A stretch of 64,000 bases of DNA from a virus (IMGVR_UViG_3300008259_002957), one strand, 5' to 3'; positions 55,649 through 61,936 are shown, numbered from the stretch's first letter. A program made the numbers and translations. The notes: generated from the letters alone by a model not told the origin.

Positions 55649-56440
55649 ATGATAGAATTTTATAATGACAAACCTCTTTTATTTCGAAGTGAATTAGTTA
55701 ATAAAACACTAAATTGGTATTCTACAGATTCAAAAGACCTGTTTAAACAACAATCTAAAGATTTTAAAAAAAATCATGAACACGAAATTGTTTATAAATT
55801 TAACAGTCTGGGGCATAGAACAAAAGAAATCAGCGACCTAAATCGAGACTTTTTATTAACATTTGGGTGTAGTTATACCGAAGGTGTCGGACTAAACACT
55901 GATAAAATCTGGAATGATCGAGTTTCTAAAGATCTCAAATTAGATTTATACAATTGTGCTTTAGAAGCAAGCGGTATGGATGTGCAATATTATAATGCAA
56001 CATTATGGAAAAACAGTAAACTTCCTATTCCAAAATTGGTTATTGTACAATGGCCTCAAAAAGCTAGAAAACAATTTGGCCTTCACAGACATGACCATAT
56101 TGAATTGCGAGACATGACGTCGCCATCGACCAAAGATGGAGTATGGTGGGGGCGTAGATATCTGCTTGATGTAGGTGAAATGTACTTAAACAACTTTATG
56201 TGGTTTGAAAATTTTAATAATATATGGCAATCCATGAACGTTCCAGTACTAAACTTTACCTGGGACGACGATGATTTAGAAGTTATATTAAAGAGAAGTA
56301 AATATAAAATATGGGCTATCGTACCAGATACGCTTGACAAGGCCAGAGACAACGGACACGACGGTCCGGAATTTCATAGAGGTACAGCAGAACAGTTATT
56401 AGAAATAATGAAATTACCCAACTTCACGTACAAGATCTAA
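55649..56440 (+). CDS. SGNH hydrolase-like protein (start revised to ATG 55649)
   Basis: TFGCSYTEG, NCALEASG, VQWP and DNGHDGPEFH. Confidence 0.55.
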   Translation: MIEFYNDKPLLFRSELVNKTLNWYSTDSKDLFKQQSKDFKKNHEHEIVYKFNSLGHRTKEISDLNRDFLLTFGCSYTEGVGLNTDKIWNDRVSKDLKLDLYNCALEASGMDVQYYNATLWKNSKLPIPKLVIVQWPQKARKQFGLHRHDHIELRDMTSPSTKDGVWWGRRYLLDVGEMYLNNFMWFENFNNIWQSMNVPVLNFTWDDDDLEVILKRSKYKIWAIVPDTLDKARDNGHDGPEFHRGTAEQLLEIMKLPNFTYKI

Positions 56441-57394
56441 CGTGCAACAATGGAAACAACCTCCGAGCGTTCTAGCATGACGTAACGGTAGCATAGCACA
56501 TTCTATACCGTGTGCTTCTAATGCTTTGCGTGTGGGTTCTTGATGTTTTTCTAATACTACTAGATTGGGATTTACACTAAACAGATTAACATTCCAAGTC
56601 CAAATACTGCTATTGCACAATCCTGGATAATGACCTACATCAACAGGTTCTGGTGCCCATACGATGTCCCATTTATTAAACGGCGCAGGTAACATATCAC
56701 GATTTTTAATTCTACTGGGATTTGCAAGTAAAAGTCCTTCTCTTAAAAATGCAACAGTGCTATCAATATGCATATAAGAATAAACTTTTTCTAATGTATG
56801 AACTTTAACATCGTTTCCTACAAATTCTTGTAAGTATTTTGCACCTGCTTTATTTCCACTATTACTTACTAAGTAAAGCAACTGGTCGTTTGCACGTATG
56901 ACATTTGCAGCATCAAACTTAGGAGCAATTTCAGTTAATGCAAGTTGATCAGGATCGCCGATGCAATCTTCGTTATACATGTCGTCTTTTTGATAATTTT
57001 CTGCTATTGTAAAATTGTTACCAAGATGTTCAACAATATGTAAAAATTCTTGTTCTCTAGCACGTAAACTCATTGGAGTTGCTAGTGCAGTGTTTTTATA
57101 AACAAACACACTGTCTCTAGGACAATAATTGTAGTATCCTGTTGGAACTCTGTTTGGGCGTTTAACTTCTACCCCTTCGCCTTTTAAAAAATTGACAAAC
57201 GTGTCTAAATCTTCGTTGCTTTCTTCTACAACTTGTTTTGGATAAGGCCTGGATTTTACAGTATCAACAGATTTTTTATCTGCATAATTTACTACCCGTA
57301 AGCTTTTATCCATTGTAGGAATTTGTGCATATTCGGGAACTCCGACAATTACTTTTTTGAGTGGATCCCACTCGTTGGTGCTATAAATACTCAT
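56414..57394 (-). CDS. Amidinotransferase (glycine/inosamine-phosphate amidinotransferase family, StrB1/AGAT-like)
   Basis: NEWDPLKKVIVG, CPRD, FDAA (Asp), MHIDST (His) and LGGCFHC (Cys); full catalytic triad. Confidence 0.9.
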   Translation of the reverse strand: MSIYSTNEWDPLKKVIVGVPEYAQIPTMDKSLRVVNYADKKSVDTVKSRPYPKQVVEESNEDLDTFVNFLKGEGVEVKRPNRVPTGYYNYCPRDSVFVYKNTALATPMSLRAREQEFLHIVEHLGNNFTIAENYQKDDMYNEDCIGDPDQLALTEIAPKFDAANVIRANDQLLYLVSNSGNKAGAKYLQEFVGNDVKVHTLEKVYSYMHIDSTVAFLREGLLLANPSRIKNRDMLPAPFNKWDIVWAPEPVDVGHYPGLCNSSIWTWNVNLFSVNPNLVVLEKHQEPTRKALEAHGIECAMLPLRHARTLGGCFHCCTLDLVREVG

Positions 57395-57404
57395 ACAATA
57401 TTTA
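57382..57404. promoter_or_regulatory. Divergent late promoter pair: TATAAATA (+, 57382-57389) and TAAATA (-, 57399-57404)
   Basis: Both boxes are read directly from the sequence; they face the 57415 and 57394 starts. Confidence 0.6.
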
Positions 57405-57414
57405 AGGAGTTTTT

Positions 57415-59880: not shown

Positions 59881-59882
59881 TA

Positions 59883-60959
59883 ATGACAAAAAAATATCTA
59901 GTAGGATCTGACTATTATTATTTTGCTTGGGGACCCGAAGAAAAAGAAGATTTGATGTGTGCGGTTAATTCGATACCAGAAATAAAGAGAATTGTTTTTT
60001 TTGGTCCTGAAGAACATGAATTTGCTAATTTTTTTACTAATCTAGGTCAATACAAAGACCTTGCAACAGAATTAAAAAGATTAAACAAAGAACATATTAT
60101 TCTAACATCAGCTGTAGAAGATTCTAGATTAAATTCATTATGGCCATACAAAAATCAAAAAAATTTTGTTTTTTGGGATTCTTATTTTGCGTATCAAGTG
60201 CTACAGTACTACATGGAAAGAAACATAAAACCTTTTGAACACAACGAAAAAATCGATAAACATTTTATTTCATTGAACGCTAGAGCACACAATTGGAGAT
60301 GTATGTTTGTTGATACTATGTACAAGGAAGGACTATTTAATCACGGTTATGTAAGTTGGCACAACGCTGACAATTGGGACTACTCGTATAAGTTCAAATA
60401 CTGGAAACCTAAGATTATCAATTTTGATGAAAATTGGATTAATAGTACAGACGGAATTCTGGATATAATGCTACCTCCGGAGAAACAATTTAAATCAAGT
60501 TTGTTTAGTGTTATTTCTGAATCAAGCGATCAAATTCTAAAAACAACAGAAAAGATTTATATTCCAATTTATCACAAAAGACCATTTATAGTTTATGCTG
60601 CTCAATATTTTTATAAATTTTTACAAACACAGGGATTTGTACTGTTTGATGAAATATTTGATTATTCTTTTGATAATATTCCAAATGATGAGTATAATGA
60701 CGGGAAAGAACGATGCGAAGCAATGATGTATGAAACTAAAAAAATATTAAATTATGATCCTAACGATTTATATAAAATACTAAAACCAAAGATTGATCAC
60801 AACTACAAAGCATTATACAAATTAGTTAAACGCCAATCAGTTAGCGACTCAGTAAAATTACTAATTGAAAATGCTAATCTAGTGAAAAAGGATTTTAATT
60901 ATTTTACAACGTTTAATTTAAAAGACAATGATAAATTTAAAGAATTTTCAAAGAGATAA
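59883..60959 (+). CDS. Glycosyltransferase-like protein (GT10-like motif), paralog 2 of a tandem pair
   Basis: FGPEEHE, LNARAHNWR, FSVISES...TTEKI...KRPF...GFVLFDEIFDYSFD. Confidence 0.5.
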   Translation: MTKKYLVGSDYYYFAWGPEEKEDLMCAVNSIPEIKRIVFFGPEEHEFANFFTNLGQYKDLATELKRLNKEHIILTSAVEDSRLNSLWPYKNQKNFVFWDSYFAYQVLQYYMERNIKPFEHNEKIDKHFISLNARAHNWRCMFVDTMYKEGLFNHGYVSWHNADNWDYSYKFKYWKPKIINFDENWINSTDGILDIMLPPEKQFKSSLFSVISESSDQILKTTEKIYIPIYHKRPFIVYAAQYFYKFLQTQGFVLFDEIFDYSFDNIPNDEYNDGKERCEAMMYETKKILNYDPNDLYKILKPKIDHNYKALYKLVKRQSVSDSVKLLIENANLVKKDFNYFTTFNLKDNDKFKEFSKR

Positions 60960-61024
60960 AATTGAATTCAAATGTATAATAATTCACTAAATATCAATAA
61001 TAACACTTAATATAGGAAAAATAG

Positions 61025-61936
61025 ATGAAAATATTACTTACAGGTGCAAGCGGATTTATTGGTCAGCATCTTTTACCACGTTTAGAAAAATTAGGCGTAG
61101 TTCATGCTTTAACAAGTGATTTAACGGATCACAACTCAGTAAAAGAAGAAATAAAATCTGTAGCACCGGACATTGTTGTTCACCTTGCAGCAAGAACTGA
61201 AGTACAAAAAAGTTTTTATGAGCAAGTCAGTTTTAGCGAAGTAAACTACGTAGGAACTGTAAACTTAATTGAATCTTGCAGACAACTAGATCCGATGCCC
61301 TATTTTGTATTTGCTAGTACAATGGAAGTATATGGATGGCAACCTATATCAGATGAAGTAGAACGCACAGGAACATATGTTAAAAGTGTAGCATTTGACG
61401 AAAATACAATTCCGCATCCAAACGCTCCTTATGCAGTTGCAAAACTTGGATGTGAAAAGTATTTAGAATACGCAGAACGTGCCTATGGGTTACGTTGGAC
61501 TGCTATGCGTCAAACTAACTGCTATGGCAGAAAAGACAACGACTTCTTTGTCACTGAGCAAATTATCAGTCAAATGATCAAAGGTGACGTTTGTAATTTA
61601 GGTTATGCAGAGCCTTATAGAAACTTTATTTACATTGACGACTTGTTAAATGCTTGGATGACTCTAATTGAAAGTCCGGAATATTGCTCAGGACATTTGT
61701 TTACAATTGGCCCAGACGAACCACGCAAGATTAAAGATTGTGCCAATTATATTGCTGAAAAACTAAAATGGTCGGGACAAATTAATTGGAATACCAAAGA
61801 TCCTAGACATGGAGAAATTTGGTGGCTCAACAGTAATCATAACAAGTTAACTCAACTTACCAGTTGGGTACCAAAAGTTTCCTATGAAGAAGGTATTGAT
61901 AGAACAATACATCATTGGAAAAATATTTTAAAATAA
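61025..61936 (+). CDS. NAD-dependent NDP-sugar epimerase/dehydratase (extended SDR)
   Basis: TGASGFIG, HLAA, FASTMEVYG, YAVAK (YxxxK) and RNFIYIDD; TAAATA box at 60988-60993. Confidence 0.92.
   Translation: MKILLTGASGFIGQHLLPRLEKLGVVHALTSDLTDHNSVKEEIKSVAPDIVVHLAARTEVQKSFYEQVSFSEVNYVGTVNLIESCRQLDPMPYFVFASTMEVYGWQPISDEVERTGTYVKSVAFDENTIPHPNAPYAVAKLGCEKYLEYAERAYGLRWTAMRQTNCYGRKDNDFFVTEQIISQMIKGDVCNLGYAEPYRNFIYIDDLLNAWMTLIESPEYCSGHLFTIGPDEPRKIKDCANYIAEKLKWSGQINWNTKDPRHGEIWWLNSNHNKLTQLTSWVPKVSYEEGIDRTIHHWKNILK

Follow-up and report, generated by a model that had tools for sequence, protein, structure and literature searches.

Gene organization of the locus

The window analysed here is a stretch of 64,000 nucleotides from the virus IMGVR_UViG_3300008259_002957 and is contained in a 113-kb IMG/VR viral fragment with a CheckV completeness of 32%. 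Between positions 55,649 and 61,936 it encodes an amidinotransferase (AMT1), a half-size protein of the DegT/DnrJ/EryC1/StrS type (mini-DegT) with candidate pyridoxal 5'-phosphate (PLP) residues, and an extended short-chain dehydrogenase/reductase (SDR), interleaved with glycosyltransferase (GT)-like and SGNH-like genes (Table 1). A preliminary description, made from the sequence alone, had named these genes and had proposed that the three enzymes lead to a guanidino sugar. All the named genes were recovered by open reading frame (ORF) calling where it had placed them. The GT-like assignment is given by a weak GT10 Pfam match and a GT-B model, and the SGNH-like one by G-C-S and D-x-x-H-like blocks. 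The stretch may well be the amino-sugar tailoring core of an enzyme island that spans at least 50 kb, from window position 45199 to the contig end.

Table 1. Features in and around the amidinotransferase/mini-DegT cassette (window positions; aa, amino acids).
Feature	Position	Strand	Basis and remarks
DUF6071 gene	53514-54281	+	Listed with the SGNH-like genes
GT10-like paralog, 449 aa	54250-55599	-	TTG start with AAGGAG Shine-Dalgarno; adjoins SGNH1/AMT1 conservedly in the window's clade
SGNH/DUF6071-like protein 1 (SGNH1)	55649-56440 (ORF opens at 55421)	+	G-C-S and D-x-x-H-like blocks
StrB1-type L-arginine amidinotransferase AMT1, 326 aa (predicted)	56414-57394	-	1bwd match; D94/H209/C316
Face-to-face TAAATA-N9-TATTTA element	57384-57404	.	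Between the divergent AMT1 and SGNH2 starts; read directly
SGNH/DUF6071-like protein 2 (SGNH2), 259 aa	57415-58194	+	Behind TATAAATA (57382-57389) and AAGGAG
Mini-DegT, 195 aa, DegT/DnrJ/EryC1/StrS-type PLP protein	58177-58764	-	PF01041; candidate PLP residues T28, D83, S102, K107
GT10-like GT-B paralog GTa, 347 aa	58788-59831	+	Family clustering, AlphaFold2 model, Foldseek
GT10-like paralog GTb, 358 aa, 41% identical to GTa	59883-60959	+	Family clustering
Extended SDR, NDP-sugar epimerase/dehydratase family, 303 aa	61025-61936	+	PF01370, PF16363; GxxGxxG, S-T-M-E, YxxxK; clade-specific accessory
GT10-like paralog, 382 aa	61915-63063	+	Sub-cut-off Glyco_transf_10 match, family clustering
Probable S-adenosylmethionine (SAM)-dependent methyltransferase, 201 aa (lead only)	63053-63658	+	Language-model neighbours

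The amidinotransferase AMT1

As judged from its alignments, AMT1 is a complete StrB1-type amidinotransferase with an intact triad, and the use of arginine as donor is predicted. In a phmmer search against the PDB it matches StrB1 (1bwd) with an E-value of 1.1e-64 across residues 6-323 of 326, followed by HsvA (7.6e-37), AGAT (2e-33) and SxtG (1e-31). The protein shows the full-length similarity as well as the triad and motifs of the AGAT/StrB1 family, which has the pentein fold. D94, H209 and C316 line up with D108, H227 and C332 of 1bwd, and the triad, together with the FDAAN, HxD and GGxFHC blocks, is invariant among 20 diverse relatives, which bears out the intact Asp/His/Cys triad of the preliminary description. 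Pfam and NCBIfam gave no match for AMT1 besides an arginine-deiminase tail at 0.009, and the identity was settled by the PDB sequence search.

The AMT1 family forms 2317 clusters at 90% identity in viral metagenomes (E<=1e-10), and relatives were found on 322 viral contigs. In the tree, 53 distinct phage sequences form one clade with a Shimodaira-Hasegawa-like approximate likelihood ratio (SH-aLRT) support of 100. The nearest neighbours of this clade are three sequences from Bdellovibrio-like metagenome-assembled genomes (MAG), and the actinobacterial clade, the clade linked to nonribosomal peptide synthetases (NRPS) and other bacterial amidinotransferase clades are separate from it. The closest cellular amidinotransferases belong to many phyla and share 37-40% identity with AMT1. 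In 62 of 80 bacterial loci (L088-L162 range) the amidinotransferase lies beside an SbnA-like PLP enzyme, an SbnB-like cyclodeaminase and an NRPS-like adenylation-carrier protein. The latter has about 1400 aa, and a phosphopantetheinyl transferase is encoded nearby. This bacterial cluster is widespread and apparently uncharacterised, and its composition suggests an amidinated, diaminopropionate-derived product.

Because the bacterial relatives sit in non-sugar clusters, the acceptor is not fixed within the subfamily or by the similarity to StrB1. The inosose- or inosamine-forming and phosphorylating enzymes that accompany StrB1 orthologs are absent from the AMT1 locus, and no inositol pathway gene occurs among the loci scanned. 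The neighbours of AMT1 across loci are GT10-like, SGNH-like, SDR, 2-oxoglutarate (2OG) oxygenase, UDP-glucose dehydrogenase (UGDH)-like and radical SAM genes.

A second amidinotransferase paralog, AMT2 (G000:C1:6405-7466, L166), is located about 25 kb past the window end. It has 353 aa, 40% identity to AMT1 and a long branch. Its neighbours are a TauD-like dioxygenase gene, radical SAM/SPASM genes and a B12-radical SAM gene, and no mini-DegT adjoins it. A distant amidinotransferase (25-29% identity) is also conserved in the Campylobacter phages CP220 and CPt10 and their relatives, and several of these records annotate an adjoining radical SAM gene.

The mini-DegT protein

The mini-DegT protein matches the Pfam family PF01041 with 56 bits (cut-off 19.8), and the match covers only profile positions 165-236 and approximately 21-82. 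Its 195 aa are about half of a normal DegT protein. A length of about 195 aa is found in 53 distinct relatives, and the short form is a conserved family length, not a truncation or a fragment. The family comprises at least 8000 clusters at 90% identity, and 453 clusters at 50% identity (E<=1e-10), nearly all of 190-230 aa. In the isolated-phage collection the carriers are only the Synechococcus phage S-SCSM2R, two huge uncultured phages and the Flavobacterium 'immuto' phages.

T28, D83, S102 and K107, as well as a GYHYY block, are invariant in an alignment of 30 sequences. The alignment of the mini-DegT profile with canonical sugar aminotransferases falls into two parts: residues 8-55 correspond to about 35-85 of the latter, and residues 77-188 to about 149-258. 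In this hidden Markov model (HMM) alignment K107 falls on the Schiff-base lysine of the sugar aminotransferases (that of 7b0m and 3bn1), whereas D83, S102 and T28 are assigned as PLP contacts by motif position. The AlphaFold2 model has seven strands and a predicted local distance difference test (pLDDT) score of 94.7. It superposes on WlaRG, DesI, GDP-perosamine synthase, ArnB, PseC and others with Z values of 18-20 and root-mean-square deviations of 2.1-2.5 Å over 184-194 residues, which are scattered over approximately positions 30-330 of chains of 360-440 aa. The canonical two-domain architecture of about 360-400 aa, with a C-terminal small domain, is not present. According to the model, mini-DegT is a pared-down PLP domain without roughly half of the normal enzyme. 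The DegT-type PLP aminotransferase of the preliminary description stands as regards the family, with the PF01041 match and the PLP lysine kept; it has to be amended to a half-size form whose activity is predicted.

In three 50%-identity clusters mini-DegT is fused to a GT10-like protein of the same family as the GT-like genes of the window: one of 667 aa on 8 contigs, one of 594 aa, and one of 622 aa with 15 members. In a further cluster it is fused to a small 2OG oxygenase, and in another a GNAT acetyltransferase is fused to mini-DegT. The fusion proteins are P0247, P0257, P0370, P0258 and P0365. The representatives P0282, P0293 and P0344 carry N-terminal extensions of about 250 aa, not assigned to a family.

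In the immuto clade of Flavobacterium phages mini-DegT has 31% identity, and in 66 of 80 loci its direct neighbour is the gene of a NeuD/PglB/VioB sugar N-acetyltransferase (E 1.8e-45), both genes lying inside a glycosyltransferase/SDR cluster. Since mini-DegT abuts a sugar N-acetyltransferase in this clade, the amidinotransferase appears to fill the slot of the N-capping enzyme.

Conservation of the module across viral loci

The comparison set consists of 80 related viral loci and S-SCSM2R, and all ORFs were compared. AMT1 and mini-DegT co-occur in 78 of the 81 loci. Counting distinct AMT1 sequences, 53 of 55 have a mini-DegT on the same strand within 6 kb; mini-DegT is followed by the amidinotransferase, abutting or overlapping, in 10/55 distinct loci, and a single gene intervenes in 20/55. 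This tightly conserved pair supports the logic of an aminotransferase followed by an amidinotransferase. Glycosyltransferases, either GT10-like or of a second family of about 280 aa, accompany the pair almost everywhere.

The SDR behaves differently. It occurs in 30 of 82 loci, essentially those of the window's own clade. In most other lineages a 2OG oxygenase of about 165 aa, with a weak AspH-type match, adjoins the amidinotransferase, and a nucleotide-sugar dehydrogenase (TIGR03026, E 8e-42) flanks the AMT1/mini-DegT pair in 35 loci. The SDR alone is found in 15 cases, the 2OG oxygenase alone in 36 and both in 3. This exclusivity probably reflects one replacement event, so that the equivalence of the two is suggested and not proven. 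Co-conservation, which had been set as a test of the pathway, therefore holds strongly for the aminotransferase/amidinotransferase pair and fails for the SDR, and the three-enzyme pathway is clade-specific instead of general. The interpretation given in the preliminary description is partly supported; its core is better described as mini-DegT, amidinotransferase and GT10-like transferase, to which the SDR would be one of several interchangeable keto-forming accessories.

The SDR itself matches PF01370 (E 1.6e-39) and PF16363 (E 1.6e-36). Its best PDB match is the UDP-hexose 4-epimerase 4zrm (2.9e-28), with RmlB at 2.5e-18, and it scores far under the cut-offs of the equivalog HMMs (TIGR01181, 105.7 vs 365; LegB, 104 vs 475; gmd, 45 vs 415). 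GASGFIG (GxxGxxG) and YAVAK (YxxxK) are conserved in 18 relatives. The Thr-(Asp/Ser)-Glu motif is that of RmlB, GMD and UXS, and its Glu is typical of 4,6-dehydratases and decarboxylases. In the phage protein the corresponding S-T-M-E is conserved, with the Glu kept and a Met at the Asp/Ser position. The protein is thus an extended SDR of the nucleoside diphosphate (NDP)-sugar epimerase/dehydratase family, as first described; the narrower assignment as a 4,6-dehydratase is not supported by the best PDB match, a 4-epimerase, or by the low HMM scores.

One locus, L084 (7955-11032), lies on a 171-kb contig from a Pseudobdellovibrionaceae MAG and has an overlapping operon of only mini-DegT, GT10-like transferase and amidinotransferase. 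Its neighbours are ordinary bacterial genes (TetR, PLD, DEAD helicase, AIR-synthase-like), and it is possible that this locus represents a cellular home or a recipient of the module.

GT10-like, SGNH-like and methyltransferase genes

The four GT-like genes of the window (starting at 54250, 58788, 59883 and 61915) cluster as one family. The paralog at 61915-63063 matches the C-terminal region of Glyco_transf_10 (E 3.7e-4, 20.7 bits, below the cut-off of 23.9), and the other paralogs have no such match. An E...TEK block (E205, E215, K216) is invariant in the family, and the sub-threshold GT10 match falls on this block. The AlphaFold2 model of GTa (pLDDT 88.6) is a GT-B fold. Its top Foldseek matches, the Helicobacter pylori alpha-1,3-fucosyltransferase 2nzw (E 8e-4) and the mango FUT13 7yro, are marginal, with E-values of about 1e-3 and TM scores of 0.26-0.36. 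Other GT-B enzymes follow the fucosyltransferases, with T4 beta-glucosyltransferase among the weak ones. Between GTa and GTb, at 59836-59880 and directly before GTb, an ORF of 14 codons (MKIFLTGASGFIGQ plus stop) copies the SDR N-terminus; it looks like the scar of a tandem duplication that gave rise to GTa and GTb.

In the SGNH-like genes G8-C9-S10 and H183 are invariant, and a D-x-x-H-like block is present. The proteins resemble viral DUF6071/Lipase_GDSL clusters (Atlas neighbours) and have no match in Pfam, NCBIfam or the PDB. Used as profiles against the PDB sequences, the GT10-like and SGNH-like alignments gave no match either. The relatives of SGNH1 align only from about Met77 (coverage 0.71-0.78), so the ATG at 55649 is its likely start. 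The protein at 63053-63658 has viral 'methyltransferase domain' clusters as language-model neighbours, is conserved in 45 of 82 loci and has no match in Pfam.

Proposed guanidino-sugar pathway

A pathway that places a guanidino sugar in a glycan is considered, with somewhat better than even confidence, the best reading of this gene set. Every chemical step and the product are proposed here from the enzyme families, catalytic residues, gene co-conservation and fusions observed above. The keto-sugar would come from the SDR in the window's clade and, in most other clades, from the small 2OG oxygenase with or without the nucleotide-sugar dehydrogenase; host metabolism would be another source. The 195-aa mini-DegT, with PLP on Lys107, would transaminate it to an amino sugar. 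Then, Cys316 of AMT1 would pick up the amidino group of L-arginine and hand it to the amine, yielding an N-amidino (guanidino) sugar and ornithine. Subsequently, a glycan containing this sugar would be assembled by the GT10-like GT-B transferases, and its further decoration may be due to the SGNH-like enzymes and the probable methyltransferase. Amination and amidination may take place either on the nucleotide sugar or after transfer, and the glycan acceptor may be either a virion protein or the host envelope.

Mini-DegT is linked by comparison to glycan chemistry with an amine product, through four independent observations: its fusions, the pairing with N-acetyltransferases, the L084 operon and the GT-like genes of the window. 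The link to glycosylation drawn in the preliminary description is supported in particular by the fusions to GT10-like transferases and by the pairing with sugar N-acetyltransferases elsewhere. GT10 enzymes use GDP-sugars. Since GDP-perosamine synthase and the GDP-linked LegB/LegC are in addition among the better mini-DegT and SDR matches, GDP-4-keto-6-deoxyhexose would be a reasonable first substrate.

The broader proposal is that a guanidino sugar is made in phages of several lineages by an aminotransferase of about 195 aa, which would be the smallest fold-type-I PLP aminotransferase known, acting closely with a StrB1-type amidinotransferase and with GT10-like transferases, and that virions or infected cells thereby bear a permanently cationic glycan coat. 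It is put forward tentatively, with the balance tilted slightly against it.

If the guanidino sugar is the product, it would be a new monosaccharide class for glycobiology. The streptidine logic (aminate, then amidinate) would have been recruited for glycans in abundant aquatic phages, as the 322 related viral contigs indicate. As a minimal scaffold for PLP aminotransferases, mini-DegT would interest enzymology and engineering. A permanently charged glycan on the virion or the infected cell could affect adsorption, superinfection exclusion and grazing. The cultured carrier S-SCSM2R makes the module directly testable.

Several observations weigh against the guanidino-sugar pathway. Compared with canonical enzymes, mini-DegT has lost the N-terminal segment, the C-terminal end and about 100 internal residues, and GYHYY stands in place of their GxNxR; the protein may be inactive or take another substrate. 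The lost segments serve the dimer and the nucleotide site in canonical enzymes, and mini-DegT may act on a glycan-bound sugar or need a partner. The formation of the keto-sugar by the SDR is itself a prediction. The SbnA/SbnB/NRPS-like context of the closest cellular relatives points to an amino-acid acceptor of the diaminopropionate type for AMT1. The many radical SAM/SPASM and 2OG enzymes that flank the cassette would also fit peptide or protein chemistry. In addition, the island genes scanned included no sugar nucleotidyltransferase, and none of the RNA runs searched for evidence of late expression carries the stretch.

Alternative explanations

The pair might instead make a free small molecule. 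This would be either a streptidine-type aminocyclitol or else an amino acid or polyamine that is amidinated and discharged into the infected cell. Among characterised proteins AMT1 is closest to StrB1, inosose aminotransferases belong to the DegT family, and the mini-DegT profile matches include BtrR and a scyllo-inositol transaminase; however, the scanned loci contain no gene for an inositol-phosphate synthase, an inositol dehydrogenase, a kinase, export or resistance. An amidinated amino acid would agree with the SbnA/SbnB/NRPS-like clusters of the bacterial relatives, although the phage AMT1 clade stands apart from both the actinobacterial and the NRPS-linked clades. The SPASM/twitch radical SAM genes that flank the cassette and the annotation of the S-SCSM2R pair as antibiotic synthesis (PMC12801897) could be read in the same sense. 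On the other hand, glycosyltransferases surround the pair almost everywhere, and mini-DegT has GT10-like transferases as fusion partners and sugar N-acetyltransferases as neighbours. A free product is consequently considered unlikely.

Only slightly less probable is that mini-DegT is not an aminotransferase at all. It might be a dehydratase or epimerase that uses PLP, or a partner without catalytic function, and the amine would come from elsewhere, for example from a host amino sugar such as a GlcN derivative. The loss of about half of the canonical enzyme, including segments that help to bind the nucleotide sugar, and the replacement of the canonical Asn/Arg of GxNxR by His/Tyr would be readily understood in this case. 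The ColD/E1 dehydratases, however, carry His at the Schiff-base position. In mini-DegT this position is Lys, invariant along with the Asp, Ser and Thr PLP contacts, and the N-acetyltransferase pairing, the GNAT fusion and the amidinotransferase all point to an amine product.

More doubtful again is an action of AMT1 on a macromolecule, independent of mini-DegT, in which Lys or ornithine of a virion protein or of a radical-SAM-modified peptide would be converted to homoarginine or arginine. At least 8 radical SAM/SPASM genes and many 2OG oxygenases around both amidinotransferase paralogs would suit such a function, but it gives no role to the mini-DegT pairing and to the mini-DegT/GT/AMT operon of L084. 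To our knowledge, no amidinotransferase of the AGAT/StrB1 family acts on proteins, and the virion-associated S-SCSM2R protein described below is not an ortholog of AMT1 or AMT2.

Finally, hypermodification of phage DNA against restriction, by amidination of an amino-bearing base or a DNA-linked sugar, is very improbable: phage GT-B enzymes can glucosylate DNA, T4 beta-glucosyltransferase is among the weak GTa fold matches and distant amidinotransferases occur in Campylobacter phages, whose DNA is known to be modified, but the best GT matches are fucosyltransferases instead of DNA glucosyltransferases, tail and structural genes adjoin the island, and no nucleotide hydroxymethylase, kinase, DpdA-like or other base-modification gene occurs among the island genes scanned.

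Relation to known systems

The guanidino-sugar module would most likely be a variant of known chemistry that is widespread in aquatic phages. In the streptidine branch of streptomycin biosynthesis, StsC (a DegT-family L-glutamine:scyllo-inosose aminotransferase) is followed by StrB1 (L-arginine:inosamine-phosphate amidinotransferase). The logic is the same, since a DegT-family PLP enzyme makes the amine and a Cys-His-Asp amidinotransferase of the StrB1 type makes the guanidine from arginine. However, the phage partner is a 195-aa mini-DegT and not an enzyme of about 400 aa, the context is GT10-like, AMT1 belongs to a separate clade, and no inositol-forming, kinase or aminoglycoside assembly genes were found at the phage loci.

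The NDP-4-amino-4,6-dideoxyhexose pathways with N-capping (PglF/PglE/PglD, VioA/VioB, GMD/Per/PerB and LegB/LegC/LegH) share the order SDR, DegT, N-modifying enzyme and GT. Their aminotransferases are the best fold matches of mini-DegT, which in another phage clade stands beside a NeuD/PglB/VioB acetyltransferase. The phage cap differs in being an amidinotransferase, predicted to give a guanidino instead of an acetamido group. In addition, the phage SDR is below every dehydratase equivalog cut-off, and a 2OG oxygenase takes its place in most lineages. Bacterial glycans also carry acetamidino and formamidino sugars, such as Pse5Am and the Pseudomonas O-antigen sugar ManNAc3NAmA, which is made via WbpG-type amidotransferases. 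These likewise place a cationic, amidine-type decoration on an amino sugar of a surface glycan, but an amidotransferase puts an acetimidoyl group on the nitrogen, whereas a pentein-fold enzyme would transfer the amidino group of arginine and leave a guanidine.

The phage S-SCSM2R, cultured on Synechococcus WH7803, carries true homologs (mini-DegT 52% and amidinotransferase 66% identity) in a cluster that also has glycosyltransferases, a 2OG oxygenase and a radical SAM gene. Unlike the window, it has the 2OG oxygenase form, without an SDR of the window's type. In the publication on this phage, ORF305 is annotated as 'AHBA synthase family' and ORF309 as 'inosamine amidinotransferase'; together with a radical SAM gene they are listed as 'antibiotic synthesis genes', and the pair is left unconnected to the neighbouring glycosyltransferases (PMC12801897). 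The virion proteome of this phage includes a different amidinotransferase-like protein, annotated as 'glycine amidinotransferase' (PMC12801897). This protein was considered as an AMT2 ortholog and rejected, its best match being again ORF309, and it is an ortholog of neither paralog. Apart from this listing, full-text searches of the literature found no description of a phage guanidino-sugar pathway, in agreement with the preliminary description, and found a guanidino sugar described as a glycan building block for no organism.

TAAATA boxes

The TAAATA boxes, described earlier as late-type, do lie before the three named genes, at -10 of AMT1 and mini-DegT and at -37 of the SDR. The box precedes 13 of the 43 window genes, structural genes included, against a background of 1.8% of random 60-nt windows. 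Several boxed genes are heads of structural operons, which fits a shared and probably late promoter type. Eleven distinct relatives share the box before AMT1, with a spacer that varies. Only the TAAATA core upstream of genes is enriched; the full TATAAATA octamer occurs 4 times in the window against 8.6 expected.

The geometry of the AMT1 and mini-DegT boxes is unusual, as both end 4 nt before the ATG. The box ends 3-5 nt before the ATG at four genes (starts 12601, 19391, 57394 and 58764), a spacing that suggests leaderless or very short-leader transcripts. A face-to-face TAAATA-N8-TATTTA arrangement also lies at 55617-55636, between the 449-aa GT-like gene and SGNH1, with TAAATA at 55617.

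Genomic setting and host

The DNA of the window was found in lake, freshwater and estuary metagenomes. A T4-like cyanophage was assumed at first, from the TAAATA boxes and the match to S-SCSM2R. Two large window proteins, searched in the phage collection, spoke against it: one is without a match, and the other matches only PA5oct-type jumbo phages, weakly and with 22% identity. The occurrence in lake, freshwater and estuary samples was also noted. The source is best regarded as a putative uncultured freshwater jumbo-type phage.

The island runs for approximately 30 kb beyond the window, with more radical SAM, TauD-like and 2OG genes and the second amidinotransferase paralog, and tail and structural genes adjoin it. 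Radical SAM arrays are placed on both flanks of the sugar cassette, at window positions 48719-53551 and at G000:C1:28715-32143 (L167), and several of their members have an N-terminal SPASM domain. Within the structural region, positions 23321-37189 of the window form a single ORF of 4622 aa.

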